NCBI GenBank assembly: GCA_044892525.1
Contig: CM097885.1
Location: 20,400,001-20,464,000, forward strand
DNA from: Schmidtea polychroa
Lineage: Eukaryota
Length of the DNA: 64,000 bases
Reading direction: 5' to 3'
Positions 23,387 through 55,849 of this stretch are shown here, one piece after another. The notes beneath the pieces were generated by a model, which saw nothing but the letters and a program-made list of their open reading frames with translations, was not told the DNA's origin and did not search any database. The number at the start of each line of letters is the position of its first letter. Position 1 is the stretch's first letter. Both the position numbers and the translations under genes were made by a program.

Positions 23387-24111
23387 CTATAAAAATGATA
23401 TTAATTTAAATCAATTTTTAAAATTAATGTTATATTTTTAACAAAACCTCTTTATCTTAAATGGATAATTTAACAAAGATATGGTATTATTAAAAATTAA
23501 TTAAAAAAGTTTGATAGAGTAGCAAATGAAAAAACTACGATTATATTAATTTTCTATACAATGTTGTTTAAGAAATACAAACTAATTAAATAATTAACTA
23601 ATGTAAACTAATCAATTTAATTAGTAAACATAATTACTAATCTTGACAGTGGTGCTAAAATAAAAAGAGTCTAAATATTTGAGATTTTCTAGTTTAATAA
23701 GATAATTTGTTACATGATGAATGCAATGAGAACCATATTAAAAGAATGAAAAACGGAGTTAAATGCCAGGATGGTCGAGAGTAGATTGAATTAAAAAAGG
23801 AAGATAAAGTAAATGATTCGTTACGAAGCAAATTAATATTGAAAACAAGCGGTTGCCCATAGTAGTAATGAGAAAAAGTGAAGATTTATGAATATATATT
23901 TGAAAATAAATTTTATTGTGTTGTTATTTACGATAAAGAGCCTCAGAGGTTAGTATTACCCATTATGGTTATTCACTAGATTTTATTTATTTTATTATTT
24001 ATTATATTCAGATCGATTTCCCTATTACAATTCCCCCAAATAACAACCAATTGAGAAGTTATATATATATAATAGGCATTACAAGCTTTGTGATACCCAG
24101 TACAAATCCCA

Positions 24112-24153
24112 ATAGTAGACTAGTTTCGAGCTTTTGGCTCTCATCAGTACTAT
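24112..24153 (-). ncRNA. Intact minimal type I hammerhead ribozyme
   Basis: Minus strand reads ATAGTA CTGATGA GAGC CAAAA GCTC GAAA CTA GTC TACTAT: 6-bp stem I, exact core, 4-bp stem II, palindromic ACTAGT stem III and a GUC cleavage triplet. Confidence 0.9.
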
Positions 24154-27100: not shown

Positions 27101-30013
27101 TATAATCACAAATAATTTTCACTACACAATGACACAATCGGTTCAACAATCTGGCCTACGATTATACAGTGCTTATTACGATACTCTGTAACGAATAGCA
27201 CTCGCGTATGACACTGGGTTTGAAGGATTACTAGCAACCGATTGGTTCTAACAACGGGGAACTTGAGCTGATGACATTTTCTAGCTGTGACATGGATTCT
27301 ACTTGCTAAACGTATCCTTTAGCACTCTCTGATCAATATTTAGTTTTAGTTTCTTTATTTTTGAACCACAACTTTCTTCATATATCTCAATAACTTCTTC
27401 TCGTCTGGATCCAATCAATTCTTCTCCGACAATTATTCTCTAGCAATTATTCTTTTAACAATTCGTCTCGGTAAATCTCCACAATTCCTTTTCTCACAAT
27501 TTGTTGTTACTATTTTCGACTTTACAATTTCTATTACAATTTATCGTCTCCTTCTTCTGTCTCTGTTTCCTTTTTATATGGCTCATCAATTTGTTTTACT
27601 TGGGTTTATCTTTCTATTTTTACCAATCTGCCTTTGAGACACTGCACATAATTTTGCTTCTCACTATCCCTGACAGCGGTCGAGATAAGTTTTAATTTCC
27701 TTTTTTTCATTTATCCGCCTTCTTCAATTGAATCCGCTATCTCTGACAGGCCGTTGAGATATGTATTTTCTGTTTTAGTTTTTTCTTGGAATTTGAAATT
27801 CCTTTTCCCCTTTTAGTACTTTTTCATTAATGATGACCTTTATTTTAATCTCATCCTTTTAGAACTCGTTTCTGTAGGGAATTTAATCTTGCTTGGATCA
27901 TTTCCTGTCTCAGAAACATTTAGTGATAAAGGTAATAATAATTTTAAAGGATTGGTCACCATGTTCATCAAAAATGAGAAGGTTTGCCTGGCGGCATTTC
28001 ATCCGGTTTTCAAACATCTCAGAGGAAAGAAAAGATGTGACGAAGCTGGATACCAATTTTCATACGTCAAATTCATTCAGGATGGTATGCACTCCTCTGG
28101 TATTTGCATTAGGCCGTAGCGAGATATCCTTTGAAAGTGATTAGGTGTTTTTCATTCACAATTTGCAAACCTTTCGTTCTTTTTGGATAAAAAATTTCAC
28201 AAAAACGACCAATTATCTCATCTTCAAACAGTGGCTAATCTAATCGTAGATTGTGATAAGGGAGGAGCATATATTTTCATAAGTTGTCTGCAACTGATTC
28301 CATATTTATTGACTTTTATCACCGTGCAAGGCAAAGAATCTAATCGTACTTCAAAACTCAACAGGATGTATCATGATTTGTCAAATAAATTGGAAATGTG
28401 CTTTCCAGTGCTGCTATGTTTATGAATATTAAAACAAAATTTTAATTTTTTATTTTATTAATACCAATTTTTGAATATCTTTTTAAATTAATGGATTCAA
28501 TCAATTTTGGAGTCACACAGCCTAACAACCTGAAAGACTGGAAGTACATTTTCTTATTTTCTTTATAAATTCTCCCTTTAGAAAATCATAATAAAAATAA
28601 TTGATGGCCTCGTGATGAGTTTTTATGGCTTCTTTCATCTTATCATATAAATCTTTATTAAAAATCTTTGTAAAAATCACAAATCCATTCAAAAACCAGA
28701 AATGGACGTACAAACTAATAATTGCTCTTATTATAAGAACTTTTTTTCCAATTTCACCACTGATTTCTTTTCCATTAATATAATAATTCCTCTCCGTAAT
28801 GAAGAAATAAACTAGCTTACAATGCGCACTACTCAAACAAATATTAGTATCCCAATGATAAATTCATGTGGTCTTTCAACATATTAGAGGAACCTCTAGT
28901 TTTGTTGTATTACAATCCACAAATCACAGTATCACAGCTTTGCAATATTTTACCACAAAACTGTAGCTTTTTGTCAGTGAGTCTTCCATTCTTCTATAAT
29001 GTTCCTCAAATTTAATCAAGAATATGATGCTGACAACCAATATCTTGTGAAACCTAACAATTTATAAACAGAAAATGACGTTGAGAATTTTTATCTTACA
29101 TTTATCTTACAACATGTTACAAAGGCTATGTTGATTATAATAATTTTTATTTCTAGTCATAATTTGAAGATGTTCAGAACATTTGCTCCTGAATTTTCGA
29201 ATGAAAGGCTGTCAATCGAATTTGTTTTGTTTCAGTCTTAGATAAAATTAATTGTTGTTCTCTTCGTGCACCCTTTTATCATCAAAACGCAAAGCCTATT
29301 CTTCCCTTTACGTTGTTTCTTTCGTTTTTTTGTTTTGAACTCCTAGCTTTTTAAAGCTTTATACATATCTTCCTAATGTAGGGATATCAGTAATATTATT
29401 CCTCTCTTTTAAAGTTTATCTGAATACTTTTGTAACTTTCCTTCTCTTCGTAATTTCATTCTTTCCCAGATCCAAGGCGTTAGTTGCTGAATATTGTTGT
29501 TTTGTTTAGAATGTAGCGAATGGTTCAAAGATATCATAAGTACATTTTCTAAATATTTCCTCTCCACTTATGAGGATTTTTTATTTTTATTTTTTGAATG
29601 CGATACTATTGAATTTGTATTTTTGACAAAATAATGAAATAGATATTATTATTGGTTTAGAACACCCTAGGGGAGGTTATAAAATGAAAATGACATTACA
29701 CTTATAGTTTATTTGTTTAGTTATTTTTCATATAATAACTTAGCTCGGCGGACTTTTGTGCAAAAAGCTTATTGTTACCTTCGCCATATAGTTGAATCTA
29801 AGTTAAAAAGAGCAACTATTTGTAAACACGAGACACTTATAGCTAAAGATTACAACGATTGGAAACTTTCAACATAAAAAATTGTGGCTTCCTAAAAATG
29901 AATTGTCTAAAATCTACGAAGTTTGAAAAGAAATCCTTTTGTTACAATTGCAATATGTTAATATACTACTAATCAAGAGATCGAATCAAAAGTGTTTCAA
30001 CATGAGAGAGGAT

Positions 30014-30366
<353 letters not shown>

Positions 30367-31894
30367 TAAATAGAGCATTAAAATAAAAATGTATTTAAAT
30401 ATTGGGATGAAATTAATTGTTGATTTTATATTTATTTTCTCAGTTAATTTTTTTAAATTTAATTTTTGATTTAATTTTAAATTTAATACATGTCAAACAT
30501 TAATGCCGAAATCAATATAAAAGTTACGGAAGTTATTTTTAGGTAAACATTTAAAAAGAAATTTGAGTTTAATTTTAATTTCAATTATTATTATTATTAT
30601 CGTTCAAAAGTGACACTTTCAATTATTATGAATAATGAGAATAATATGAATAATTATAATTATCTTAAAATATCTATATAATAAAAATGTTTTTAAATAA
30701 AATAATTCATTAGAATTTCTGATATTTGTTTTAGAAATATTTTAGAAAAATACATTTTTGGCGATTGATTTAATTATTTAATTATAATTAAAAATATATC
30801 TGACTTACATTATATCAAAATAATTCCAAAATTATAATTATAAAATAACTTTCATAAAATGCTTAAAAAACCTGAAAATTAATTAAAGATAATTTATAAC
30901 ACAAATTTTGACTAAAAGTAATATCTATATGGATCAAAATTCAAGTCTTAAAATTTACTCAAAATTAAACATCTTACATTTCAAAATTGGCTAAAATAAA
31001 TTTCAAGATATGAAATTTATTAAAACGGTGAGTCAATTTAATGAGACCAATTGATGTACATACTAACCACCACTATAGAAAATGTATCTCAGCGGTGTTT
31101 GGTATATTTATTAGAAATTATATAAAGCATGCAAAATATTAAAAGAAATTATAACAAGTATGGAGCAAAATATTTAGTTGTTATTTGTATTTTTTTAGTG
31201 GTAAAAAGTGCGCCAAAATGCCCTGACAATGTTAAGAAACTAAACATTATTATTTTACAGGTAATTATACTGAAGTTATAATTATTAAACGGGAGATTTA
31301 TATTAAATTATTATCATCATTATTATTATTATTAGTAAAAAGTAATGATTTCTTGATAGACGGATTAATTAAATGATAATTTAAGTCTTTTGCTGCGAAG
31401 TAAATATTCAATAAAATGAAAAAAACAAATAGCCCTTTTCAATTTCTTGAAATTTAGTTACTTCAACTTTTTGACCTTTTCTTTCATTCCCTTTTTCTTA
31501 CTTCTCATTGGTTAAAAATAAACTGAAACAAATTAAAATTTTTTTGAAGAATATAAAAAATCTTTTTAAATTAAATTGCATTTTAAATTCAAAAAAAAAA
31601 CAAAGCAATACAAAGAATTTTTAAGTTTTTAAAGCTTCTATAATTAGCTCATAGAAACTTCTTTTAATAAATGATATAAAATATTTATAAAACAAAATTT
31701 CCAATAACTATTTACATAAGCTATTTAACAGTTTTTGGAAAATGTTTACATTTTGATTTTTATTTTTAATGATCTCTAAAAGTTTACTTCCTTAAAATTC
31801 TATCTAGTTTTTGTATGTTATTTTTAAATTATTATTTTTTAAAAGAAAATATTCTCAAGGTCAATAACAATTTTTCGCTTGTTATCATTAATAT

Positions 31895-32205
31895 CTTTAT
31901 ATTTTTATTAAAACCATTGATGAAATTTCTAGGGGAAATGTGTTGGTTTTATCTTTGAATTCTACTCGAATATTCTGTCTATCAGTTTTATTTATTACAT
32001 CAAGCGACCAATGTTTCATTTCGCTTTAAACTGACAATAAATCAAATTTTTGTCTAATTCATCGCCAAATTTGATTTTTGCAGGATCTCCAATCAATCAT
32101 TCCGTATCAGTTCATGCAACATAACTAAGCGTTGTGCAGTTTCCTGGATCATTTGCAATAAATTCACCTTTTCCATGTTGAAATACGTCAACGCATGATA
32201 AATAA
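31895..32205 (-). pseudogene. hsp70: Hsp70 N-terminal pseudogene fragment
   Basis: [39 protein letters not shown] and SEMKHWSLDVIN...EISSMVLIK match the Hsp70 ATPase domain, with stops and a deletion. Confidence 0.9.
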
Positions 32206-32211
32206 TAGTTA

Positions 32212-32418
32212 CCGTATTTGCCCGAATATAACGCAACATTTTTTAACATTTTATTTTTATTAAATAATCGACTCGTCCTAAATTCGGGGTTTAAGTAATG
32301 TAATTTAAATAACGACATTAATTTTTAATTTTTTATGAGTATTTTTTTTCTAAAAATCTTTATGAAAATTTTGGTGTCGCGTTAAATTCTGGTTCGCGTT
32401 ATATTCGGGGTAATGCGG
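32212..32418. mobile_element. Tc2/pogo-type MITE
   Basis: TIR CCGTATTTGCCCGAATATAACGC / GCGTTATATTCGGGGTAATGCGG with TA on both sides. Confidence 0.85.
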
Positions 32419-32731
32419 TAATAACCATTTGTAATTCTTTAAAATTTTATGAGATTCACAGAAAAACTATAATATTAAAACACTGCCCATTTTGATTTAT
32501 TTAAATGAAGTCAAAAAGAAAAATTCCAAATATAATTTTTAAACAAAAAAACTTCCTAAAAAGCAAATTAATTTCCAAATTCAACTTAACAAATAGAAAT
32601 TAAATTGCTTGCAATATCTTATTTTAGCATTTTTAATTTGATTTGCAAATTGATATAAATTTCTTAATTAATATTTAATTTCCAATAGTTATCATTTTAA
32701 AACTGGAACATACAATTATTATTATTACTAA

Positions 32732-32958
<227 letters not shown>

Positions 32959-33105
32959 TTATTATTATTATACGGGTTTTAAAACAATTAATTAAGCCTG
33001 TTTAATGAAAACAATTATTACTATTTTAAATATTTATTTTATTGTTGAAAATTTTTTTAGAACTTTTTTTTAGTAAAAAATATTATATTAAAAATTCTTA
33101 ATTAC

Positions 33106-34646
33106 TTTAAATTGATCATTTAAAACAATTAGTCGTCTGATAATTTCTTTTGGAGAATTCTGAGAAGAGTAATTTGACAAAAACGGGATCTGGCAGCTGT
33201 GTAATTCATAAAATATCATTCCAAAAGAATAAATATCTGATTTCTGAAACGAAATAGAATCTAGGTTATTTGGATTTGCGGGAAACTTTATTTTAATAAA
33301 TGCCTCCAAACATGATTCATCATTTGATAAATTGAAAGGATTTACGTCTGTTTTATTTTCATGTGACCTCTTCCTTTCTGACATCAGTCCAAGCTTTAAG
33401 TTTTGAAGAAACTGATTATTGTGAGATTTATGCTGAATCATATCACGGAGAATCTCCGGAGCAGTCCAAAACATGGATAAGAAATAAATATATTCTGGAG
33501 TATCTGGCAGAGGTGACACATTAGTTAAGAATTCTCTCATTCCAAAATCGGTTAATTTTACAGTCCACCGACTATCAACAAGACAATTTGAGGATTTCAA
33601 ATGTCCATGAAAACAGATATCAGGATTTTCATGAAGAAAATTCAAACCCCTTATAACATCGAAAGCAAATGAACTCAGAAACACTGGATACTCTTTAGTA
33701 AGCTTTGTGCTATATAAAACATCTTGTAGACTACCACGATCACAGAATTCCCAAACCACCCAAGTATCCTGATGCTCTATGATAGCCCCCATGAATTTAT
33801 TCAAATTTATATAACTTATTTCTCTAAGAGTCTTTAATTCCTTTTTCACTTTACGAGTTATTGATATAGCGGAACTGAAAAAGACTCTTTTTACTACAAC
33901 TTCTTGGTTTCTATACATACACAAAATCAAATTTGACGTACCCCAATCTGGTTGTAGAATATGTCCAATGTTACAACAGCTCTTTGCTAAAATAAATTGA
34001 CTATCTTCTTCGAAAGGTAAGCAAACATTTCCATTTTCTATCTCTTTAATTGGTGGTCTAGTAATAAAGGAAAACTTTTCTAGCAATTCTGGATTTGAAA
34101 AATCTAGTTCTTTTAGTCTATCTATTTTCCACAAAAGCCTTTCCAGTTCTTTTTCATATCGTTTACTTTTTATGATAAAGGCCGACACGAATATCACTAA
34201 TATCAGAAGAATAAATAAACTGACAGGAATAGATATGAGCTTTTCGTTGGTCCTACAAATTTCTCCATTAAATCCACATTCTGGAATATCTCGGGGTATA
34301 TCATGGACCCAATTTATATTTTTATTATTCATAAATTCGAACTCTAGAAGACTTCCGTCATCAAGTTTAAATAGACCGATTGGATCAATTTTCATTTCGC
34401 CGTTTGCGTTGATAATTAGTTGATTGACGGTGTAATTCCCATAGGCCTCCCCTTTATTATCGATGTGGTTCATGTATCCGAAGACACTTTTATAATATCT
34501 GTTTAATAATAATTTCTTTAAAAGCATTCCATCTTTTGGGGAGCCTAGACTCTGATTTTTTAAAACGATACCAACAACAGTTGCATAGAGTAATACCGCA
34601 TCATAGAGGTAACTTGATTCCATCGGAGCATACGAAGTATTTGATT
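33106..34646 (-). CDS. Receptor guanylyl cyclase large exon: distal ectodomain, TM helix, kinase-homology (pseudokinase) domain
   Basis: Contains YLYDAV, the juxtamembrane PECGFNGEIC, a hydrophobic TM (LISIPVSLFILLILVIFVSAFII), HGHLKSSNCLVDSRWTVKLTDFG (no HRD aspartate), WTAPE and KSDIYSFG. AG/GT borders are in phase. Confidence 0.95.
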
Positions 34647-35219
34647 CTTAAAAAATAATAATGAGAATATTATTTTTAGTATTATTTTTTATAATTCATT
34701 TAATTCAATTTAAACAATTGGTAAAGTTTTTTATTTACAAAAGAATTCAGTTTTAAAAATGATATAAAAAAGGATAATAGCGGAACGTTTGAATGTGGAG
34801 AAATGGGTCGCGTTCTGAAAGGTAGGTTGTAGCCACACGCGGTTGATACAAAATATGGTAAAATACTTCCAACAAACTTGGATATTATTCTTGATTAGCT
34901 CCTCAGCTAGTAGATATTAGTTTCACCACAAAATATGAGAATAAATAGATATGAAAATTACAATAATAATCACAAGTATGTCAATGATTTTACGAACAGT
35001 TTGATAAGAAGTTTGATGATTATGCTGCAAATTTTCCATTTTTTGGTATCATAGAAGGACCATATGCTAGACTTTTTTTTACTTTTTTACTTTTTTGAAT
35101 ATTTTATTAGCTTTTAATTATTTTTTAACAACTTCAATTTTCTAATTAGCTTGTGCATTTTTGCGCAAATCATAACAAGTGTTTGACCCTGGGGCTAAAA
35201 TAAACATCTATAATAATAT

Positions 35220-35320
35220 TAATGTCGTTTCAAAAAATTGTAAAGTTTGTGACATGTTAAGTAATAAATTTGTGCCGCTTGCTTTATGTTCTCATCTCAT
35301 AGATTCTATATCTTTTAAAA
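35220..35320 (+). repeat. ~100-bp interspersed repeat, second copy at ~39625-39720
   Basis: Shared TTTCAAAAAATTGTAAAGTTTGTGACATGTTAAGTAATAAAT..GCCGCTTGCTTTA. Confidence 0.8.
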
Positions 35321-35847
35321 TATTTTAGTCAATATTTTTCTGTCATCTTCTCAACTCCTATAATAAAGTTCAATAAAGTTTGCTTTAATTTTTTGATGTT
35401 ATCTTTGTTTGATGAAATTGAACCTTATAAAATATAAAATGAAAATGTTTTTTGTGCTTAAATTCTTCGTGTCATTGGTACCACTAGTTCCTAATCATCA
35501 ATCTCTTTGCATCATTCAGATTGTTGAACTTTTATATAAAATGAACCATCATAAAAGTAACTCAACACTTATACATTGCGATAAAAGATATTTCAAATCG
35601 TGATAAAAAAGAAGTAAATTTGGCCAGTGCTTTTTTTAAACTTGAATAATGATTTTTATATTAAATTAAAGCTATTTTTAAAATGCGATTATCAAAAAAT
35701 GCAGTTAGCCATCTATGGTGTATACATTTTTAATATTTATATTGAAATGTTATATTATTGCTGTCTTAGTTTTGAACTGGTAATGATGTTATTATTAATT
35801 TTTTCAAATTTTTTATATGATCATTATAAATAAAAATATAAAATTAA

Positions 35848-36143
35848 AATTTATTAAAAGCTTGAAGACTATGAATCAGTAAATATATATAAAACATCGA
35901 TATATTTACTGATTCATAGTCTTCAAGCTTTCTAATAAATACAATGGAAAAGAAATCAGTGGTGAAATTTGAAAATGTTCTTATAATAAAATTTAATATT
36001 ATAAGATTATTTTCAAATTTCGCCACTGATTTCTTTTCAATTGATTTTGTATTTAATAAAAAGCTTGACTATGAATCAATAAATATATCGATGTTTTTTG
36101 ATATTCATATTCTTAATTTCAAAAAACCATCGATATATTTACC
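35848..36143. repeat. Four alternately inverted segments of one repeat unit; dispersed family
   Basis: Unit CATCGATATATTTACTGATTCATAGTCTTCAAGC...AAATCAGTGGTGAAATT..GTTCTTATAA. Other pieces occur at ~28730, ~46250, ~56450 and ~60250. Confidence 0.85.
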
Positions 36144-36527
36144 TAGCGCTTTTTTCTGACGGAACGCTCCGGAACAGCGTTCCGGCATCTTTTTTCGCTG
36201 AATGATTTTAAAAAATTGACATATGTTTTGGTTTTTTGTCATATTTCTATTTCTGACATTTCAAATAGCAAATTACAATCAAATTAAAAGTAGTAGTCGT
36301 ACGCCAAAGCGAGTGAATCAAAGCTCCGTGCTTCCTATGTGTTATTACTATTATATATAACACGCTCACGGTAAATATACGTCATTAATATACTACGTCA
36401 TTAACATCGTTTTCTGTCGTCGGTAATAAGTGTATATTTTGTGTCCTGCATAATTATTTTATTCAGCTAATTTCAGCGTCATTTTTTTGCATATATCGGG
36501 CACCTTTTTTCCAGAAAAAAAGCACTG
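36144..36527. mobile_element. MITE (hAT-like ends)
   Basis: TIR TAGCGCTTTTTTCTG / CAGAAAAAAAGCACTG; no clear TSD. Confidence 0.6.
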
Positions 36528-36573
36528 AGTTTGGCCATCCATTTTATGTATACCTAATTTAAATTTTACTTAC

Positions 36574-36777
36574 TGTCTTGTGATTCTACATTGAATGGTG
36601 GACGACTCATGAAATATTTGAATTTTGAGCTTTCGGTTTTGATCAACTGACCTTCGGGTTCTATATGACTAATAATGACAAAATTTCGCAACGAGCGTGA
36701 ATCCACTTGAATATTTCCAAAAGCAGAATCAGAAATTGCTTCGAGCCGCAATACCAATGATACGACAAAATAATTAC
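36574..36777 (-). CDS. Receptor guanylyl cyclase exon (ectodomain)
   Basis: TTTCAG acceptor, GTAAGT donor, phase 1/1; encodes GNYFVVSL...MSRPPFNV. Confidence 0.85.
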
Positions 36778-39139
36778 CTGAAATAACAAACATTAATTAA
36801 AAATTTCAAAACATTTATAACGTTTCGCTATTATTTAAACACAAAAAACATTATTATAAATATTTTGACAATATATTTATTTTAGTCAAATATTGGAAAG
36901 ATATTTAAATATATAATTCATACCTGGACAACCAATAGATCATCAGCCGCATGCTGCTCGAAACGTAATTTCTTGAGGTTATTAAAACATTTCCTCATCT
37001 ACCCTATGTGCATTAGAATATATCTTCGGTTGAGGAGGAAAAATGTTTTATATTAATATTTAAATTTGTATATTGTATAATTTTATAGTAGTATCTACAA
37101 TTGTCATATTTAGCAAAACAAAATATATTAATATTTAAATTTGTATATTTATAAAAGATAAATAATATTTTGCAATTCATACTATTTTAATAATTTATAT
37201 ATCCTGCTATTTAATAATTTCTGCTACACTATTTCCATTTTTTTTCTAGCATTTTTTGTTAGTGTTTATGAACATTTGATTTTTTAAAGCAAAAATAAAT
37301 TGTCAGGCAGTTCATTGTGTGACAGTAGTGAATTTGTGCTAATTTGATATTTCATTTCTACTATCTTAACTTGGCCATCTATAAATATGCTAGTCACAAC
37401 AATACCAATGCAAGTAGAGCATATAATTCAAAGTTTAACACTGACGAATTTGTGCCTATTTAATAATAACATTCCAAACTAACCTAACACAGCACATGAT
37501 ATGACTTGTCTTTGTCTGTTTCAATCTCTTTCCTACCTTCTTTCGATCGGGGGATTTTTTCTATCTTATTTTCGCTTAAATTTCGCGTGGCGACAAAAAA
37601 TTACTGACTTCTTTTATAAACTTTAAAAACGATTGTGGTATAAATTATAAGTACATAATTTTAAGTTATACCTAGCGTGTTCTGGCTGACTATATTTGTA
37701 TAATCTTTGTGTAATAAAAAACATCAACTGAGGAAAAATCAGATCAAGCTAGCGTACCTAGTACGCTTCAAGAAAATACGGCTTCAACGGTCGATAATGC
37801 TTGTAAAAAAAGTTGTTCAGTGTAAGATGAAAATTTGTTTATTGGAAAGAGCAAGTTCACAAAAAATTACTTTTTTTATTAACGTGCAAGTGCAAAATGT
37901 ATGATATGCATCCGAACGCTCCCGTTATAAAAAGCCAAAGCTAAAACTTTTCTTCTGTACTTTAACATTTATTTAAAATTTACTGTAATATGTAAATTTT
38001 GACAAAAAACTCTACTTTAAAAAACTATTTTTCTCGGACCACTTCTCCATCATGCCCTTGCAACAAGTAATTTTATAATTTAACAGCACACACAACTAAT
38101 TAACTCATACTACGTCACTTATTTGATTATAACTATTATCATCACTTTTTCATATTTAGCCTTTGATAGAAGATACATGGGAATTCATAGCGCAATATAA
38201 TGCTAAAACTGATTGATACAAATTACAAGACGTTGACAATTAGATAGATATATAGGAATATATAGGAATAGATATATAGGAATTATTTCCAATCGTTTTG
38301 CTCAAGCAATCTACTCTATTATTACATGTTTATATCACGTATAAGCTAAGATTGATTAATTGACACTTATTAAAAGCTGTGACAAAACTTTGTGTAAAAT
38401 TGGAATTTATTGATCTACAAAATGAAGAAAAAACATGGTGATAGAAAGACCTCTGAAAAAAACATTTATAAAAACAAATATACTCAAATGTATATTCGTT
38501 TACATTTTTATATAAATAGATTTGTAAATATTGGTATTATTATTATTATTACTTACAAACAAAAATAAACTAAAAAAGAAATAAACAATAAAAGATAAAT
38601 TTATCAGATAATGATACTAATTATTGTAAAATTGATTTAATTTTTACATAATATTCAAAATTTAATTCACAATTTCAATTTTTATTTTCAACTTTTATTG
38701 CTATTTCAAGGGCTTTGTCTCTCATACTGCTGTTTGTTGTCAGTTTGACACCCCTTGGCATAGAATAATAGACAGTTTTGAAATAAATGACTTACTCCTT
38801 TGTATAGTCAGTAAGAAAAATAACACCAGAGGTAATAGGTGAGTGATAAAGAAATTTTACTGTAATTTACTAAAAATGGTTCTAAAAATATTAAATAGTT
38901 ATTATTTTTGGCAATTACGTAATAGTCAAAAAAAATGTTTTTCACTTTATTTTTAATAATTAATGATATAAACAGAGTGATGGTCTAGGTATATGAGTTC
39001 ATTAGCTTCGACATAAGCTCTAGTTTTTATATCAAATTTAGAGAGTATTTTATTTATTATTTTATAAATTATATGATTTTTCTGTTATGATAAATAAAGA
39101 CCAGAAAGCGGATATGAAGATTGCTCAAACGCAAAGCAA

Positions 39140-39250
<111 letters not shown>

Positions 39251-40754
39251 TACCAGAAAGAATTTATATGTTTGATAAGGAGATTGATCTAATATTTTTG
39301 GAGATTACTGTTTACTTAGTGTAAATCTATTAATAGTGTAGACAAATTCATTAAATTACTAAATAATAATAAGTATTCAAAACCTTTTTTACAACAAATA
39401 GTGTGAAACTGTTGATAATTGTGTTAATAAGCTGAATGAGTTTGATGCCATAATTTCATTTGATTGATGGTACTCAATTGAAAAGCACTGATAGTAATAA
39501 TGCTAAATTTGATATAAATGAAAGTGATTTGTATGTTGGTATTTGTTTTATTACAATTTTACGGTTTTCTGATTGTTTTAGAAATCTTAGAAAGCTTTTA
39601 CAAAAATCAGTGAAAGTGACATGTTAATGTTATTTCAAAAAATTGTAAAGTTTGTGACATGTTAAGTAATAAATCTATGCCGCTTGCTTTACGTTCTTAT
39701 CTCATATATTATATAATATTTTTAAAGAATTTTAAAAGTTAAAAATAATTGTTTGTTGAAAATTATTTTTAAAAATAATTATTTAAAATTGTTATTTATA
39801 ATTTAAAAATTTATAGATTTTATAATTTGTTTATAAATTATCAATAATGTACAGTTATTCATCCCTAGTGAATGTAGGTAACCTGATGGAGATGTTTTAT
39901 TAATAAAATCTTTACCATGTTTTTTTAAGTATATATAATAATATTGCATATATCTGTTAGAAGTTCAAATTCTTCAACTTTATTCTTTAATAAAAAATAA
40001 TCTGTGATATTTAAATGAATATAATTATCATAGTTGTTAATTTTCTAGACATAAACAAAAGTCGGTAAAACTCTTATAAAATTATAAGATGTTCAAGATA
40101 ATAAAGAAATGATAAATCTCGAAGGCGGAAAACATTAATTAATTATTTCACTGTAAATAAATAAAAATGTGATATTTTAGCTCGTGGTAAAAATTATAAT
40201 TTTCCAACCAATTATATCAATAATATTTTTTTGCAAAAGAGGTGTAAAAATATTATTCATAAATTGTGGAATAATGTTTTTAAAATTATTTGAGTAAATC
40301 TGACTCGATTTAATAAAGAACTACAAAAAACTTGAAATTTTACAATTTGTAAACAACGTGTTTTAAAAAACAAAGAAAAAAAGAAAGTGATTGATAAGAA
40401 GGTTTCGAGAAAAGAATTTTATAGAATTTAATTTTAACACATTTTTTCAAATCATAATAGATTAATATTTCTTTTTTAATATGGGTTGTTTTAATTAATA
40501 CAATTTTTATACAAGAAAATTATATTTACTGAAGTATATGACTATAAGAAGTTAAACTGGTTTTGCTTTAATGATCATCATGAAGTATTTTTCTGTCGAA
40601 TTTAATTTTGAAGTGTTAAATATTTTCCTGATAATGATATATTTAAACAATTAAGTATGACAAATTGTATATCCCAATATAAATATTACAACATCCAATC
40701 TTCTAAATTTTACTAATGCCCATAAAATAATGACAACAAAAAATATATTTTTAC

Positions 40755-41137
40755 CTGTATCTGTTAGACCCTTCTCATACAAGGCCATTAGAAGCCCAAA
40801 TATTTCAAAGTCCGATCCAATAAAAACGTAGATTCGTGTACTTCGGAATGTATTTTCAACAATTTTATTAAATTTATTGTTGGCTGATCCATAAATAGCC
40901 GGACTCATGACTAGTTTATTGTGAAGAATTGTAATATTGTGAACCTTTAAAACGCTGAGACAGTTTTGTAAAATGAATTCGTTCTCCTTATCGTTGCTCG
41001 AAATTATTGAAACTGCATTCCACTTGAAGCGTTTTAAAAAGCTAACTAAATAATTTGCTAAACCTGATACCTGTGGTCTAGTTCGGACAAAAGTGGAATA
41101 TCTTTGTGAGTCCTCAGTAAGTCTGAAATATGGACCA
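40755..41137 (-). CDS. Receptor guanylyl cyclase, first identifiable exon (ANF-receptor-type extracellular domain)
   Basis: Translation YSTFVRTRP...FKWNAVSII...TRIYVFIG...GLTDTG is typical of receptor-GC ectodomains. The GT donor at 40754-40753 is in phase 1 with the next exon. The acceptor is either 41137 or 41122 (same phase). Upstream exons were not identified. Confidence 0.85.
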
Positions 41138-41754
41138 CTTAAAATCAAATCATATAAAAGAAAAGATAAAATACAGAATAAATCAGAAACTCTTGATCCG
41201 TTTTACAAGCAATAAGGTAACGACTTTATAATTTTATATATGTTTAACGCATTTTTTGTTTATTGATATTTATCCATTCGGTTATTCTTTTGATTTTTAA
41301 ATATAAAACGATTTATTAATTGATTTTTAATAAAATAATTTATTAATTAAAATTATTAATCAATTTATTGATCATTATTATTTAAGAATTTATTTATTTC
41401 AAATATTTATTTATTTTAATATTTAAGGATTCATTAGTTTTTAATACATTGATAACTATTAATCTTTAATATCAATGGTTAAAATTGACTACTCGTGTTT
41501 GTGTGCGTACACGTGTTTTTTCCTGTTAGCAGGCGCTAATAGTCGATTTAAGTTGTAATTGTGATTTTTAATTTAGTTTTTAATTGTCTGATTTTGGACG
41601 GTTCTGGGATTGGAATTTATGTGAGGAATTGAAACTTTGCTTAAAAAGACATGATTTATCGAACTTTTTAAAAATAAACATTTTCGAAATTTTCTGGATT
41701 TTTGAATTTATGAGTATGATGATTATTATTATGATTGACATGAGTCAAATATAT

Positions 41755-42560
41755 AGTTATGTTGGTGATAGGCGTCAAACTAAGAGAGGTATTTTAATTT
41801 TGAATTATACAATTGAATACGGTATTGTTTCAAACTATGATAATATGAGAAAGATCTGTTATCATACATTTTATAAAGAATTCCGAATTGCGTCAGAAGA
41901 GTATCCATTTCTTCCTACTGAAGCACCAATGAATTTAAAAGTTAACAGAGAAAAAATTACTCAAATTATGTATGAAACATTCTATATGTATGTTGCTATC
42001 CAAGCTGTTCTGACACTTTATGCTTAAGGAAGAACTACATGTATTGTTTTAGATTTAGGGGATGGTGTAACGCAAAACAGTTACTGTTTTCAATGGATAT
42101 GCTTTACCTCATGATATTTATAGAATTGATTTAGCCGGAAGAGACTTAATTAATTAACTAATAAAAATTATGACAGACTGAAGATACGGTTTTAGAACTA
42201 CTGCCAAAAAAGAAATTGTTCAAGAAACTAAAGAAAAACTGTTTCACATTGTTCTTGCTTTTGAACGAGAAATGCAAACTGCTGCCTCTTCATCGTCAAT
42301 TGAAAAAGAGTTATGAACTAACAGTAGCTACGTTATTACCATTTGAAATGAAAGATTCAGATGGTCAGAAGCTTTGTTTCATTCAATATTCTTGAGAATG
42401 GAAACTGCTTGTAACAGCATGATGAAATGCGATGAGAATATTTGTAAAGATTTCTATACTAATATAGTTTTATCAGGTAGTTCCACAGTGTATCCTGTTA
42501 TTGCAGATTATATGCAAAAAGAAATATCAGCTTTGACTCCATCATCAATGAAAATTAAAC
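41755..42560 (+). pseudogene. act: Intronless, decayed actin copy lacking both termini
   Basis: [71 protein letters not shown] and NIVLSG..TVYP, with multiple stops and frameshifts. Confidence 0.95.
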
Positions 42561-48387: not shown

Positions 48388-49378
48388 GGATCAGACAATA
48401 ATATGAAACGATGCTCTAAGTATTAAAGTGTTTCAGTGTGTACTAAAATCTCGCAATAGTTTGAATTATTTTCCATTTTGTTAAGCATATTGTTTCTGTA
48501 AAATACTATTTAATAATATCGAATTTTATTGCACGGTGTCATACTACCCGTGGTACTAAGCCCCAATCTAATTTTTGCTTTTGTTTCTATTTATTCTGTA
48601 TTTGTAGGAATATTTTAGTTTATCCCAGACCAGTGGGATGATAAATAATAATAAATAATAGATAAACAAATTTTATCATTATTTTATTGTAATTTTCGTT
48701 TTAATTTCTACCATTTAGTGTTCATCCATTTCTCAAAATTTAATTAAATTAATAAAAAACTTTAAAAAAATATTTTCTTATTAATTATTTGTCACTTAAT
48801 ATGTTTATTATTATCAGATAATTGTCAGTTCTTTGACAGATTTTCTTACGAATTTTCACAATCCGTATACATTCCTATTGATAGTTAAATTTTATCCAAA
48901 TAAATCAAAATTGTAAAAGTAATTTTTGATAAGAAATTTAAAATTATAAAACCCATTTTTTGTTTGAATTAATTATTTTCAATGATAAATTTTTAAAATT
49001 TTAATTTAAAAAAAGTTTAAAGATGTTTAAAATAAATTTTTATTTAATATTAAATAATTTCTGAATAAATTTCATTTGAATTAAATTAAATTAAATTATA
49101 TTAAATTAATTCTTATACTTCTAGAAAATTCATGTTGTTTATTTTATTGTATATTTTTAGAAGCCTAACAACATAAATGATAATGTCTAAATTATTAAAA
49201 AAGGAACAATTAATTAATTTAATTAAAATTATTGAGGAAATTAATATAAAGCATGTTGTAAATTAGAAATTTGAAAATAATGTAAATGCAAATGAAAACA
49301 AATTAATTAATTAATTAAAATGTATAATAGAAAGAGGAAGATCAATATTAATTAGTATAAATTAATGAATACCGAAAT

Positions 49379-52300
49379 AGTAAATAGATATGTGGACTCC
49401 AGTCCAACAGGAATTCTCACTCTCACAATTTTTCTTGGATGAGGGGTACCTTTTTTGACACCCTCTTTCATCAATTTATTTTTAATTTTTGGATAAGCCA
49501 GTAATTATGTAATAATTTACATTTCATTTTAATAGTCGATCACATAATATTTTAATTTCTGATTTCATCATCAATTACGCAATATTTAAAAAATTTTAAT
49601 TTAATTTCAAAGACTCTATTGCTTGGAATTAACTTTGCTATTTAATGAGACTATGACGTACTCAAAATTTTGAAATTTCATTTTTAATTCACATCATTGT
49701 AAACAATTTGAGATATTTTCACTCGAACAAATATATAGATAGAATTTAAATTTCTACAAAACAAAATTATTTATTCACATTCACTTGATCAATTTGACTG
49801 CATTTGGGGATTATATGGAATTTCATATACCAAGAAATATATCTTATGATTATGATACATTTTTTACTGATTTCACATCTTTTCTGATTTGAATCCATTT
49901 TGTCTCATTTAATTTCTTAATTTGACTTGTTTCTTTCAATAAATTTGAAAATGATTTCTTGCCAAAACATTCTTCTTGGATTGCATATTAAAAATTAATG
50001 AATATTATGTCATTTATATATCTTTTATACTAGTGTATAACCAATCAAATAAATGCATTTTTATTGCAAACATACATGTGAATCACTGCCCTTTGTGTGA
50101 ACTTTCTATGCGAGTCATTCATGGTTTTCAGACGGATTGCAGACGAATTGCAAATTATTTAATTAAGATATATCGACTCTATAATTAAAACGTGTACTAA
50201 TATCACGAGTAAAATAGTGTACCGTAACAAATAACACTAAATGGTAACGCTATGAAAATATTTTTAACATTTAAAAATAGAGAAAAAACAAAGGTTTTAT
50301 ATAATAAAATTTATTAAATTATATGGATCATCATCAACATCCGGAAAATTCTGATGGTATAATAAATTTTCCTCTGGATCGATCATCGGCAATACCATAT
50401 CTTCATCCTTATCATTATTCGTTATTTGTAATATTCCTTCATCAACCATAATCATACCACTACCTCTATAATGTTTTTACGTGTGACTTTTATTTTCCCC
50501 CACCCAATTACACTGAACATCAGAATTTGTTAGAGCTCTCTTAATACTAAAAGTTGATGGTTCTTTCTAGTTATTCGAAATTGGAGTACCGTTTAAATTT
50601 GATTTCACCGAGACTGAATTTGAAGACATTTTCATTTATTTTCATTTGAAGACAGATTTGAAAATATAGGGGCAATTACTTGTTAAATAGTTGGTTAAAT
50701 CTTCAAGCTTCTTCATGTATAAATCATCAATAAATGTGAAAACCGAATCTTATAAATCTTTGCACGTTAACTTCATTCTAATTACATTATTTATTAACGA
50801 ATGGTGGAACTACAATTTGGAATGTATCAGTGTGACTTATAATTGCTGGTTCAGGAACTCCTAATCTTTTTAACGCTTGCCGCATTTTCAAAATGTTATC
50901 TCGAATGGATGGTAATCGCAACAAATATTTAAAACTCCCTTGGTAATATGCATGTAACAATCATTATTTAATTCTTTTATTGGCATTTCATCATCTTCGG
51001 GTTCAATAACTTGAAAACTGCTAACTGATTTCGGTACAATTTCTTTATATTCAATCTTAGAATTACTGTAAAATGGAAATGTGTTGTACACAAATGTGTA
51101 ATCAAGCAAATAAACTTCCCATGTGTCATCTTCATGTCATCATCCTACATTTCAATTGACATTTTATTTATTAATATTTTAATATTTATTTTAATTCATC
51201 AGTACTTGATGAAAAATTATTTGAAAAATATGCTCAGTAATATAAATTACAAAAGGTATATTTGATGTGTCTCAAATTGAATTTCCAAAAGGTAAACCTC
51301 AACAAATTGTTGACAGAAGTGGCAAATATTCAATAATAATTTTCAAGTCTGGTAAGTGTCGAATAATGGGATGTAATCAATCAATTAAAGTTGAAGATTT
51401 AAAATATGAAATCATGGGTTTACAACTTCAATCAATTACAGTTACTGCTTATATTGAATCAAATATTAATTAAAAAAATTTATCAAACTATATGAAATTT
51501 TTTTACGAACCAGAAATATTTCCGTCATTAACATATATAAAATACAATCCAATGTGTGTTAACATATTCAATAGTGGTAAAGTAGTTATATTTGGTATAA
51601 AAACATTGGATTATCATTTACTTGTTTATGAAGTTATTAAAGATATTAAATCAGTGAGCATGGAATTTTTAAACTTTTTGCTAAACTAAAGTTACAATAT
51701 GAATCTAATTGGTTGATAGTGTGTATCAAAAAAAGTATATATGCAAGATCATTTTAATCATTTATTCAAAAATAGTTGAAAATGTCAAATTTATATCAAA
51801 TGGTATATTTTGATTATTGTTTTTTTCAATTTACAATTTTTATTTTTTAGAAAAAATCATACAGATTATGATTGGAAAGTGGAGGAGCTATATCCGAATA
51901 ATTTAAAGGATTTAATCTATTGTGAACTAGAGATTATTCCATTTAAAATATGTATGTCAGCCGGTATAGATTTGATCTTATTTGATTACTTGAGGACGTT
52001 AGAGGAAGATCTTGCCCTTTTGACAACAATCACAAACCATCAAATGCAGTCAAATTTATCAAGTCGCGATATTCAAGTTTAATTGCTCGTATAGCAAAAG
52101 AAGTGTTGGGGAAAATCAATAAGAAATTAAGTTGCAATGAAAATACATTCATCAACAATCAAAATTCCCTTTTTCATGATGCTTTTGAAGAAATTGAATA
52201 TAAAGATGGTGAAAGATGGTTTGTAAATATTTCAATACTGGGATATAAAATGGATAAGAAAATTTTATCACAAATTTAGAGAGTAGATAGCGCTCGAACT

Positions 52301-52891
52301 TCTTTGGGGATTTAATACATGTATAGTTATTAATGTCTTTTAATATGATTTTTAATATCAGAATTTCTTATGTATAGATGAATAATTTGTATTTTTTAAA
52401 TGTTGAAAATGTATATGTATGTAAAGGTTGGCTGAAGAGGCGCTGTTTAAACTGTTATGAATGTGAATAAATAATGTTATTTTGTAGAAATTTAAATTCT
52501 ATCTATATAATTTTTGAGTGAAATATATCAAATTGTTTAAATGATCGGTGAATTCAAAAATGGTGTACTAAACATGAAAATTCAAATTTTGATTACGTCA
52601 CAGTCTCAATTAATAGAGAATTTAATTCCAAGAGTTTTTGAAATTATTATAAAAAATTAAAATTGATGAGGTAATCATTAATTTAAAAACTTGTAAAATT
52701 TTGTGTATTTGATGATTACAACAGAAATTGAAATATTATGTAATCACTGATTAAAACAAAATTTTAAAAATGTATGGGGGAAGTCTATAAAAAGTAAGGG
52801 GATCACCTTAAAAAGATATCCCATATTCACCCAAAAACATTGGTGAAAGTCGAGAATTCATATTGGGCTGAAGTCCGCACATCCATTTACT
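49379..52891. mobile_element. Non-autonomous Maverick/Polinton-type element (3513 bp)
   Basis: Diverged TIRs at ~49379-49783 and ~52458-52891, termini AGTAAAT...ATTTACT, and a perfect 6-bp TSD CGAAAT (49373-49378, 52892-52897). No polB, integrase or capsid gene was recognised. Confidence 0.8.
51209..51689 (+). pseudogene. Divergent TATA-box-binding-protein-like gene inside the Maverick-type element
   Basis: Two TBP half-repeats: LSNINYK..(frameshift)..IIIFKSGKCRIMG and LQSITVTA..IN*KNL..FYEPEIFPSLTY..VNIFNSGKVVIFGIK. Intronless, with one frameshift near 51253 and one TAA at 51471. Confidence 0.8.
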
Positions 52892-54435
52892 CGAAATAAC
52901 ACGTTAACCGGGCAGTGAGTACAAATTAAAACTACCCAAATGGTAAACTTTATTATTATTATATTAAGTTGATTAATAAAATAGAAATAAATATATCTTT
53001 GCTTTTTTCACCTGAGTCCTGGAAAAATTATTGTTTTAAGTCATCCTTATATGGATATTGTAGTGATGGTTTTTCACATGGTGCTTACAGAAAAAGGGAT
53101 GTAAGACATATACAACTGACATGGTGATTACATTACATTGTTAATTTTTGGTAAAGCCGAAAATTGATAGCGTGTCAGGTAGCTGTGGTAAAACATGTAA
53201 TTGTCAAATTTCGATGGCATTGCAATTTTTAGTAAAATTTTTTTCGTGGTGAAATCAAAGAAAAATGCTAAATGGAACTATTAAAAGTACGCTTTAATCA
53301 AAAAGACGGAAGATTGGATGGGAAATCAAATATTTATTATCATAAATCAGTGTTGTCCAAACTGTGTAAAAAAAATTCAAAAAAACCCTGTTTTTCCAAA
53401 CAACTTAATAAAAGGAAATTGAATTGTGGATATTTTAACAGTTATTTCAAATTTAAATGTTAATCGGTCAATTAAGTGCGAAATTTATTTGTTTACAATC
53501 ATATTTATATTTCTTACTAGAAATATTGACTATCTAAAACCGTAAGCAGCTTAATTATGTTTATTTAGAATCTTAAATATTAAATAATAATATTTTTTAG
53601 TTTATAAGTTTTCATTTCTTATTAAAAGATTAGTAAAAGTGCAATAAAAAATAGCAAATAAAGCAAAAAAAAATTAGGTGTGCCGCGAAAATTTTTAATT
53701 CAGCCAAGTGTGCCGTGGCTCAAAAAAGTTTTTTTAATTTTATTATTTTCTTTGTTTATAGAAAAGAAAAAGTCACGCGTAAATTGTTTTCATCATTTAT
53801 GCAATATAATTTTCCTTTGATTATTTTCTTAAGTTATGTTTATAATCTATTTATATTATATATTATGTCAGATGCCTTTTTGTTCTTCATTCAGAAATGT
53901 ACTTAATGACTTTCTATTACAGAAATGTGGAGCTTTATTTTATCCAACGTATGTTATTTTTTACATTACAGAAATTACATTTTGTTTAACATTAATGAAA
54001 CTGAAAAATAGTGGCTTATTTATTTTGTTTAAATTGAGAATTAAACCTTTCTAACAAATAGAAAGTTTATTTATGAATAAAAGCACTTAGTACTTTAAGT
54101 ATTTTTAGAGTCATTTTCGTTGCGGCTATTTATTATTAAAAAAACAATTAAGAGAGAAAACTTTTCAAAACTAAATTTAAATCAACGACGAAGTTTCGAA
54201 ATGACGGAAATTCAAGTTATTCATCTCAAAAATTGGAAATTTGATTTCATACATTTTATTTTAGAGGTGTGCGAGCTAGCTATAAGCTTTTTGGTGTCCT
54301 GTCATATCTTGCGAATGAATGTCTATTTACCAAGGCAAAGAATAATAAATAATAATAACCAAAATGCTAATTGATATTTGTTATAAATTGTAAAGGAATT
54401 AGTGTATTTCAAACCTTTAATTGTTACTTTATAAA

Positions 54436-54519: not shown

Positions 54520-55110
54520 ATCCTAAGGATCCGTGTTTGAGAAAATCTGGGTGTGATTTTGTTGAGGTGTGCGGGTCTGATGAGTCAAATAAATTAAATA
54601 GTGTGAGCAAGGGTGATGAGCCTAAATTTATGTTAGTATTGCCGTACTCAGAAGGTTTTAAGGATTATAAAGGGAAGGTAAGAAAGCAGTTAGGAAATTT
54701 AAACTATAGGATAGTGTCAACTTCATGGAAAGTACGCAATATGTTTATTAATAAGTAAAAAACTCCGGTTGAATTGTGTTCCGATCTCGTTTATCAGTTT
54801 ACATGTAATGGCTGTAATGCTACATACATTGGAGAGACTTCCTGTCATCTCTGTATTCGAGCTCGAGAATATTGTAGACCGAAGGCTTTGACCCATATTA
54901 GTGAGCTCAATAAGGGCTGTAAAATTAAAATAGGTATGTCTGATTTTAAAATTTTATTAAAAAATTTCGATAATTATTGGGAACGTGTGATTTGTGAGGC
55001 GTTGTTGATAAAGTCATTGAATCAAAATATTAATGTGCAGAATACAGTGAATACTTGTATTTTAAATGTTTTGATTATTTTCTTGTATATTGTATATATT
55101 GATTGTTGTT
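54512..55110 (+). mobile_element. Second, truncated copy of the Penelope-like element (GIY-YIG region)
   Basis: Highly similar to the reverse complement of ~1480-2121; starts right after a (TA)n tract; contains an in-frame stop. Confidence 0.92.
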
Positions 55111-55849
55111 GTAATGTACAATCTTATTTTTTATTTCTGTACAAGGGGACGGAACGTTGGTCCATTTCGTTGGGTGTAAGTCCCGTAAAATTAAATAAAG
55201 AAATTATTTAGCGATAATTTACTATGGTAAATGGAAAATTAAAAAAAATCAATTACGAATTAAAATTTTGAAATAGGACTTTAACAAGAAATTAAATTTG
55301 TGTAACAGAAGATAAAGGATACAGGATCCAAAACTCCAAAAGATAAGAAAAATAGAAGATATCTAGTCAGGAGACTTATCAAACATCAATCAAGTAGTTA
55401 TTCACGGAATTATTATAAAAGAAAAAGGAAACTTACTATACTAATTAATATATCAGCGCAATTTTAAAAGCATACTTCTAGATTAAATAAAAATATCGGA
55501 CAGAAGGAAAAGTTTTATATAACGATTACAAGTTTAGATTTATAAAGATTATAATCAAAACATCGGTTTTTGACCCAAGGCAAATTAATCCGAAAATAAA
55601 CCCGCTGTTTGTATTGGGTTTTAGCACCCCAATTGTCGCGCGACATTTTTTTTAACGGAGACTCTATCGGGCTCTTCAGATATCTACACCCAATCACAAA
55701 CCATATAAATACTACTATATAAATAAATAGGGATATACAAATACGACAATTCTAACAAAATACCAATGGCTGAAAATAAATCCTGAACCTTACAATAGTT
55801 GTGTTAAATTAAATAATTAATAAAATTTTTTAAATTATTAAATTAAATT

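Follow-up and report, generated by a model that had tools for sequence, protein, structure and literature searches.

A conserved TBP-family gene in a Maverick/Polinton lineage and a candidate private core-promoter box

The element at 49379–52891 and its full-length relatives

We analysed a 64,000-nucleotide window of the Schmidtea polychroa genome (G000:C1:20400001-20464000, contig CM097885.1; 'the window' means this whole stretch), which comes from a 781-Mb assembly with four chromosome-sized contigs. Positions 49379–52891 of the window hold a 3,513-bp element that starts with AGT, finishes with ACT and carries a broken gene of the TATA-binding protein (TBP) family; we use the name TBPL for this TBP-like gene and for its protein of ~150 amino acids (aa). 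An initial annotation of the stretch had described the element as a deleted derivative of a virus-like element family of the Maverick/Polinton type, the self-synthesising transposons reportedly described by Kapitonov and Jurka in 2006 and by Pritham et al. in 2007. The interest of the locus lies in the TBP-family gene of this lineage and in the promoter pattern of its elements, not in the window copy, which is itself an ordinary dead deletion derivative. The features of that copy, including its terminal inverted repeats (TIRs), target-site duplication (TSD) and remnants of open reading frames (ORFs), are listed below by window position, with strand and evidence.

49373–49378, no strand: left TSD copy CGAAAT, read directly; identical to 52892–52897
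49379–49783, plus strand: left TIR, ~405 bp, starting with AGT; from inverted blocks and arm alignment
49784–50604, no strand: inner left region with no intact ORF; homologous to the interior of the relatives' 1.5-kb TIR and to the 3' end of their DNA polymerase (PolB) gene
50600–51129, minus strand: remnant of two small virion-block ORFs; blastn to relative B 16892–17419, 89.8% over 538 bases
51130–51161, no strand: deletion junction at which the integrase and ATPase genes are gone (~2.4 kb in the relatives); from gaps between collinear blastn blocks with relative B
51230–51689, plus strand: TBPL gene, broken; Pfam TBP at E = 3.5e-13 and alignment to an intact relative
51780–52082, plus strand: remnant of a small ORF 3' of TBPL; inside an 85.6% blastn block with relative B 19849–20753
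51986–52279, plus strand: remnant of the relatives' long-TIR ORF, its C-terminal end lost; 69% identity to the relative's ORF
52458–52891, minus strand: right TIR, ~434 bp, finishing with ACT; from inverted blocks, a genome match and arm alignment
52892–52897, no strand: right TSD copy CGAAAT, read directly

The element was placed at these coordinates because a reading of the flanks puts copies of CGAAAT at both repeat ends. The left boundary reads GAATAC CGAAAT followed by the element start, AGTAAATAGATA (also shown as AGTAAATAG), and at the right boundary the element end, CATCCATTTACT (also shown as CCATTTACT), is followed by CGAAAT AACACG. With a composition of ~25% G+C (the window varies between ~18 and 32% per 2 kb), the chance of a match at six of six positions fixed by the repeats is ~1e-3 by our own arithmetic. 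A repeat search recovered the inverted termini as three collinear inverted blocks (77–93%), and global alignment of one arm to the other counted 334 matched and 70 mismatched positions plus 92 gap columns; identity at aligned positions is therefore 82.7%, with arms of ~405 bases on the left and 434 on the right. When the left arm was used to search the whole genome, the right arm was recovered at E = 8.4e-46 along with 41 other places, and the TIR family as a whole is repeated in the genome, with 43 scored matches from 940 first-look candidates. Direct reading and arm alignment thus agree with the annotation on the AGT...ACT ends, the inverted termini of ~400–430 bp and the exact CGAAAT duplication.

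Two full-length relatives, of 13,944 and 15,031 bp, were fetched from the same genome. Their TIRs are ~1.49 kb long and 96% identical, and all three elements combine AGT...ACT ends with a 6-bp TSD (CGAAAT in the window, ATTATT and TTTATA in the relatives), the duplication length expected by the annotation for other copies. Scanning one of the full-length relatives ORF by ORF against Pfam identified a protein-primed PolB (DNA_pol_B_2, E = 2.9e-17, split over two overlapping frames in that copy), an integrase with an rve domain (1.3e-10) and a C-terminal Chromo domain (7.7e-6), and an ATPase (Pox_A32, 3.1e-6, 27.3 bits against a cut-off of 22.8) that is kept in 27 metagenome loci. Head to head with the ATPase gene lies TBPL (Pfam TBP, 3.9e-15), here as an unbroken ORF of 154 codons. 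No DDE transposase of another superfamily was present among the ORFs of the scanned relative, and we rejected a different transposon superfamily with 6-bp duplications in view of the PolB and rve integrase genes of the full-length relatives.

The virion genes were matched less firmly. An ORF of 116 aa in the relative gave a weak match to Peptidase_C5 (adenain) at E = 0.021 and 14.9 bits, below the cut-off of 21.3, with the order His...Asp...Gln...Cys visible by eye. For a 420-aa ORF, a putative capsid protein, the first match in an Atlas feature search was a 'double jelly roll-like domain' cluster (score 0.97), and a distant homologue matched Capsid_N weakly (E = 0.0073); the ORF itself had no Pfam or PDB sequence match. 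Pfam and PDB sequence searches with the other small ORFs gave no firm match. By five defining features (TIR ends, 6-bp TSD, PolB, rve integrase and ATPase) the element is a regular Maverick/Polinton, and we regard this identity, together with the assignment of its gene to the TBP family, as close to certain. The 10–20-kb versions foreseen in the annotation therefore exist as copies of 14–15 kb with a protein-primed PolB, an rve integrase, an A32-like ATPase and a putative capsid ORF.

The relatives' long TIRs contain a further ORF, present in two copies per element and conserved beside TBPL in many metagenome loci. In a model of one such ORF (L064:1295-1777, plus strand) the core reached a predicted local distance difference test score (pLDDT) of ~90, and the best folds, all at middling scores, were the Enc34 single-stranded DNA-binding protein (Z 7.4), DUF2815 (7.3), T7 gp2.5 (7.2) and CP312R of African swine fever virus (6.2). 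This ORF is likely to encode the element's gp2.5-type single-stranded DNA-binding protein.

Aligned by blastn with relative B, the window copy is collinear except for three deletions, which removed the PolB-to-capsid block, the integrase and ATPase genes, and part of the right TIR interior. Element positions 405–1226 match relative B 9390–10220 at 70%, and the larger deletion, of the PolB-protease-capsid block, lies at ~50604. The virion-block remnants, at 50787–50960 and 50888–51136 on the minus strand, are homologues of the relatives' 129- and 161-codon ORFs between capsid and integrase, and the small ORF downstream of TBPL corresponds to one of 114 codons, stop to stop, in the relatives; Pfam scans gave no match for the remnants at 50600–51129 or for the downstream ORF in the window and the relatives. 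What the copy retains is both ends, the virion-block scrap, the TBP-family gene in broken form and, downstream of it, remnants of two small ORFs. PolB and integrase are absent owing to deletion, and with polymerase, protease, capsid, integrase and ATPase all lost, the copy could be mobile only with proteins of full-length relatives. Its internal parts are 85–90% identical to a younger subfamily, while relatives in its own TIR subfamily are only 69–84% identical, which indicates an old, dead, non-autonomous copy. Since the 14–15 kb relatives carry the same TBPL together with the Maverick core genes, we call the window copy a dead, internally deleted Maverick/Polinton that was inserted with a 6-bp target duplication; the description of it as a deleted derivative of a virus-like family holds.

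The TBPL gene and its predicted fold

With its stop read as X, the frame at 51246–51689 matched Pfam TBP (PF00352) in two stretches and scored 49.6 bits, compared with 55.9 for an intact relative and a cut-off of 22.9. Alignment to the intact relative places the start ATG at 51230, a frameshift at a one-base length difference in the A-run 51251–51254, an in-frame TAA at 51471–51473 and, close to the 3' end, an in-frame gap of 6 bases. The window gene is 81–82% identical in amino acids to intact 154-codon copies and contains the motifs IFKSGK, YEPEIFPSL and IFNSGKVV, with no N-terminal extension and no intron. An intronless gene of ~155 codons with both TBP half-repeats and two lesions, as first annotated, is therefore what the Pfam match and the alignment recover.

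TBPL is neither confined to this locus nor generally broken. A search of the genome with the protein listed at least 150 matches, from 3,976 first-look candidates, and an intact 154-codon ORF was present in 29 of the 29 loci (L032–L060) cut out around the best matches. The coding sequence is identical in 20 of these 29, indicating recent amplification, and another subfamily of this genome (58% identity) is intact too. Because the family is very abundant in a 781-Mb genome and so many copies are identical, the host either expresses a foreign basal factor or must silence it. Among the matches listed, a group of ~45 copies at 57% identity shares a single TAA inside the match together with a 155-codon open frame; this could be a natural stop earlier than that of the query or a premature-stop copy that was amplified.

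Beyond this genome, we collected 88 homologues at 40–65% identity, nearly all of 100–200 aa and all but one with PF00352, which come only from metagenome and run assemblies; an exhaustive search gave 815 cluster representatives at E <= 1e-3. A Maverick core gene stands beside TBPL in 37 of 80 JGI metagenome loci, and in 30 of the 40 where the flank is at least 1.5 kb, even as the identity of these companions to the element here falls to 31% for PolB and 25% for the capsid. The position of TBPL varies from element to element: before or beside the ATPase gene, after the protease gene or after that of PolB. A Protein Atlas search with TBPL gave nothing beyond generic TBP clusters, whose taxon labels are unreliable.

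Substitution rates among the copies, whose estimation the annotation had proposed, point to constraint. The Nei-Gojobori ratio of nonsynonymous to synonymous rates (dN/dS), taken for 146 pairs with dS 0.1–1.5, is 0.36 in the median and below 1 for every pair; the window gene compared with intact copies gives 0.40–0.50, as expected of selection followed by decay. By these sequence comparisons TBPL is under purifying selection. In a quick maximum-likelihood tree, in which only some rows are verified as Maverick-borne, a branch with support of 99 by the Shimodaira–Hasegawa-like approximate likelihood ratio test (SH-aLRT) separates 67 short TBP-like proteins from 20 canonical TBPs with two repeats, and 43 rows of the TBPL family fall to one side of a branch with SH-aLRT 93. 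The separation from canonical TBPs that the annotation's tree was meant to probe is thus seen, among rows that do not include the host's own TBP/TRF genes.

These data bear on whether TBPL is instead a recent retrocopy of a host TBP or TRF gene, inserted into or taken up by this single element and now in neutral decay. Such an origin would suit an intronless gene whose window copy is broken. It is contradicted by the intact ORFs at all 29 sister loci, by synteny conserved in distant Mavericks, by dN/dS well below 1, by separate host TBP-type loci in the same genome that score 70–124 bits against Pfam TBP where TBPL scores 50–56, and by the place of TBPL outside the canonical TBP group in the quick tree. 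We exclude a recent host retrocopy on these grounds and give that origin next to no weight. TBPL belongs to a broad Maverick clade as a conserved gene under selection and was not captured from the host, and the suggestion in the annotation of long evolution within the element gains support from the synteny in distant elements and from the selection.

The protein is predicted to keep the TBP fold. An AlphaFold model built with a 36-sequence alignment reached pLDDT 95.1 and a predicted template-modelling score (pTM) of 0.84, and in a Foldseek search of the PDB all 44 of 44 matches at E <= 0.001 were TBP, with 170–178 columns aligned and template-modelling (TM) scores of 0.57–0.68. A profile search of the PDB returned 35 sequences, all of them TBP, with archaeal ones first (6e-21). 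The fold was borne out by Pfam, by this profile search and by AlphaFold with Foldseek. hhalign to canonical metazoan-type TBP spanned both repeats with a probability of 97.6% and opened gaps, 7 and 13 residues long, at the expected places of the repeat-1 helices H1 and H2; the model shows no helix as long as 4 residues in repeat 1, and repeat 2 is complete with both helices. TBPL is thus modelled as a compact two-repeat TBP saddle whose repeat 1 is reduced to its beta-sheet.

Conservation among the 36 sequences is greatest in the stirrup of repeat 2, an acidic EPE(L/I)FP: E95 and F97 do not vary, and conservation of E93, P94 and P98 is 90% or more. Next in conservation are the F-x-SGK strands of the two repeats, and F38 and F113 are likewise invariant. 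In cellular TBP the EPEL residues of the stirrup contact TFIIB, and the convex helices of repeat 1 are the sites at which the regulators TAF1, Mot1 and NC2 act. From positions in yeast and human TBP, we take F38, F97 and F113 to be three of the four DNA-kinking phenylalanines.

Two promoter classes and the proposed role of TBPL

We compiled promoter windows of 150 nt 5' of the predicted ATG for every ORF that matches a protein of the full-length relative, drawing on two elements of this genome and 80 metagenome loci; the 159 windows were reduced to 147 by removal of near-duplicates. ATAAACA was the top word of an unbiased 7-mer scan, occurring in 60 of the 147 windows against 9.0 expected (p = 5.6e-34). 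The box YATAAACR is found in the sense orientation in 61 of 85 windows of genes other than TBPL and in the antisense orientation in none of the 85, compared with a mean of 2.5 and a maximum of 7 of 85 when these windows were shuffled 200 times. The 62 TBPL windows do not contain it (0/62; Fisher p = 6.5e-22). By gene, it precedes the ATPase in 22/28 windows, the integrase in 10/17, the capsid in 6/6 and the two small virion-block ORFs in 7/7 and 10/13. It was seen in all four divergence tiers examined, lies in differing reading frames where it overlaps upstream coding sequence, and is commonest 32–40 nt before the ATG; of the ten copies in one full-length relative, all are on the gene strand.

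TBPL windows have a different signature. TATAWAWR occurs in 28 of these 62 windows versus 18 of the 85 others (p = 0.002), with a peak 35–47 nt before the ATG, and in many TBPL loci CCAAT and an initiator-like TCA(T/G)T are present as well, closer to the ATG. The data show two promoter classes that split exactly between TBPL and the other element genes, and the YATAAACR pattern is a new observation. An antisense YATAAACR lies inside the TBPL coding sequence at window position 51630 (minus strand) and at the same place in relative B (20320, minus strand); it may be a by-product of the codons there or an antisense transcript start.

Might the box be a variant poly(A) signal of the upstream gene instead of a promoter element? 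UAUAAA and CAUAAA are weak poly(A) signal variants, the genes are packed head to tail so that a 3' signal would precede the next ATG, and the box does follow the upstream ORF's stop in 12 of 61 windows. For 21 of the 61, however, it falls within the coding 3' end of that ORF, 10–92 nt before the stop, where cleavage would remove the upstream stop. In the full-length relative the ATPase box stands in the divergent spacer between the ATPase gene and TBPL, and its strand has no gene upstream of it; moreover, poly(A) signals do not include the conserved C at position 7. We rejected the poly(A) reading for at least 21 of the 61 windows and for the divergent ATPase/TBPL spacer, and consider it very improbable overall.

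The best explanation overall, to which we give a probability of roughly 55%, is that TBPL is an element-encoded initiation factor with a private core-promoter box. TBPL would be transcribed from a host-type promoter, a canonical TATAWAWR often accompanied by CCAAT and an initiator-like sequence. The protein would then bind YATAAACR before the ATPase, integrase, capsid-block and other element genes, at a TATA-like distance from the ATG, and would recruit host TFIIB, through the EPE(L/I)FP stirrup, and RNA polymerase II to these boxes. The outcome would be a private, TFIID-independent second tier of transcription for the element. The components of this proposal differ in strength. That TBPL is a DNA-binding transcription-initiation factor is probable, whereas its being the specific reader of YATAAACR is a possibility that falls somewhat short of even. 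More tentative again is the full picture of a clade of 14–18 kb animal Mavericks with a two-tier programme, in which TBPL is fired by TFIID and a private YATAAACR code then bypasses TFIID. The N-terminal repeat of TBP sits over the 3' half of the TATA box, and the variant box differs, with C at position 7, where the most altered repeat of TBPL would lie by analogy; this correspondence is suggestive only. Box sequences on which DNA binding by TBPL and by the host TBP core could be compared are TATAAAAG, TATAAACA and CATAAACA.

TBPL could also act as a general stand-in for TBP, or as a decoy, with no private code, the box being read by host TBP or a forkhead-type factor. TBPL would then either free the element's ordinary TATA-like promoters from the need for TFIID and its regulators or sequester host TFIIB or further factors. 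The nearly invariant TFIIB-contact stirrup motif is as expected on this account, as is the absence of the repeat-1 helices on which TAF1, Mot1 and NC2 act in cellular TBP. The box itself offers further support: 41 of 85 windows have TATAAAC, which includes the canonical TATAAA core, so that host TBP could read many of the boxes, and ATAAACA fits the forkhead-factor consensus RYAAAYA. Yet 25 of 85 windows have CATAAAC, a poor TATA box, and the box keeps a TATA-like distance from the ATG in a strictly sense orientation. Its distribution, 0/62 at TBPL against 61/85 elsewhere, is a split expected of a two-tier programme but unnecessary for a general substitute. We judge this second account unlikely, if far from negligible.

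A third possibility is that TBPL is no transcription factor and serves as an architectural DNA-bending protein in replication, integration or packaging, for example at AT-rich termini. Sharp bending of DNA is a property of the TBP fold, replicons of the protein-primed kind employ accessory DNA-binding proteins, and TBPL lies near the element end beside the gene for the likely single-stranded DNA-binding protein in the TIR. This role is improbable, given that conservation peaks in the TFIIB-contact stirrup, which has no obvious replication role, that the place of TBPL in the element varies (beside the ATPase gene, after that for the protease or after that for PolB), and that a gene-specific promoter box points to transcription.

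Several points, besides the resemblance of the box to TATA and forkhead sites, weigh against TBPL as an initiation factor with its own box. The capsid and protease assignments lean on weak matches. At the position of the fourth kinking phenylalanine (strand S2 of repeat 1) the aligned residue is non-aromatic or variable, in a part where the alignment is uncertain; with this phenylalanine apparently missing from repeat 1, as both helices are, the mode of DNA binding may differ. YATAAACR was scored solely in the set of TBPL-bearing elements; a scan of IMG/VR with the ATPase alignment for Mavericks lacking TBPL gave five relatives only, at 23–29% identity. The windows come from only 34 mutually related loci, near-duplicates were removed only at 80% ungapped identity, and the gene starts were computed, as tblastn matches plus the first ATG. 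None of the sequencing runs holding TBPL-element sequence is recorded as RNA. Pfam, from which a very divergent miniature form could escape, found no TFIIB-like or zinc-ribbon gene at E <= 0.1 among the ORFs of any of three elements scanned, and the small ORFs neighbouring TBPL show no such motifs, so the lineage would be TBP-only, with a trimmed protein.

Comparison with known systems and neighbouring features

We know of no TBP among the described core genes of Mavericks/Polintons, which, to our knowledge, are thought to depend wholly on host transcription. The elements described here resemble Mavericks/Polintons in their long AG...CT TIRs, 6-bp TSD, length of 14–15 kb, PolB, rve integrase, A32/FtsK-type ATPase and, by weak matches, a capsid/protease block. 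They differ from the core set in a conserved TBP-family gene of ~150 aa, a chromodomain integrase and a likely single-stranded DNA-binding protein gene in the TIR.

The cellular TBP paralogues TRF2/TBPL1 and TBP2/TRF3 serve subsets of promoters beside general TBP and retain the TFIIB stirrup. TBPL is like them in belonging to the TBP family with that stirrup retained, and a special-promoter role is what we propose for it here. The paralogues are host genes with two complete repeats, unlike TBPL, which is element-borne, lacks H1 and H2 of repeat 1 and falls outside the canonical group in the quick tree.

Large DNA viruses (Nucleocytoviricota and mirusviruses) likewise encode members of the TBP family. 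Their genomes are at least 100 kb and often encode transcription machinery of their own, and in their TBPs both repeats are full, whereas the TBPL element measures 14–15 kb, has no polymerase subunits and encodes a TBP trimmed in repeat 1. Scanning IMG/VR with the TBPL alignment returned one locus, on a large-virus contig (L069) and not in a Maverick. The gene there, at 9860–10408, encodes a canonical two-repeat TBP (124 bits), with ribonucleotide reductase genes, a split family-B polymerase containing an endonuclease VII insert, and heliorhodopsin as neighbours. A paper on mirusvirus-like elements (PMC10675990) mentions TBP in connection with them, and a mirusvirus paper mentions TBP as well.

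The pairing of a Maverick with TBP, of which the initial annotation knew no description, has left a trace in print. In the accessible portion of Starrett et al. (2021; PMC8502044), the legend to figure 5 includes the label 'TBP' among the genes of polinton-like viruses and related elements. The legend does not tell which element bears the label, that portion of the text contains no discussion of it, and a term search of one supplementary file of the paper found no mention of TBP. Conservation, selection, fold and promoter box of TBPL are not described in the portion available. The adintoviruses, or midsize linear double-stranded DNA ('MELD') viruses, treated in the same source (PMC8502044) resemble the present elements in being Polinton-like, with an adinto-like PolB and integrase. 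In the full-text literature, from whose coverage subscription journals are excluded, this legend was the only instance of the Maverick/Polinton–TBP pairing found.

Taken together, the gene and the promoter pattern suggest that small Mavericks bring their own promoter-recognition factor. If so, no smaller eukaryotic virus-like element with a basal promoter-recognition factor of its own would be known, and TBPL would be a natural altered-specificity TBP. As a natural TBP trimmed of the surfaces through which the cell regulates it, TBPL would bear on TBP evolution and on altered-specificity TBPs, and the combination of an element-borne TBP with a strand-specific box missing from its own promoter makes Maverick gene activation a question that can be asked by experiment.

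Distant TBPL-bearing Mavericks from metagenomes have accessory ORFs, at 3994–4398, 6198–6629 and 13312–13893 of locus L123 and at 7142–8002, 9086–9487 and 11529–11942 of locus L128. Elements of this set encode a parvovirus-type phospholipase A2-like domain just 5' of TBPL, a C2H2 zinc-finger protein between the ATPase and integrase genes, a KilA-N protein and a RING-finger protein. Small ORFs directly 5' of TBPL in the distant elements begin with MGN.QGR, which resembles a myristoylation signal.

Elsewhere in the window, frames of 239, 189 and 150 codons at 1470–2189 (minus strand), 2715–3284 (plus) and 54759–55211 (plus) had no Pfam match and may be parts of other repeats. The host gene nearest the element encodes a receptor-type guanylate cyclase, with exons at 22973–41202 on the minus strand and Pfam domains ANF_receptor (40651–41202), kinase-homology (33088–34647) and HNOBA (22973–23386); these exons mark the host as an animal, and the element lies ~8 kb past the 5' end of the gene. 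Just past that same end, a 147-codon open frame at 41584–42027 (plus strand) matches actin (PF00022, 2.8e-18) at profile positions 46–138 only and may be an exon or an actin fragment.

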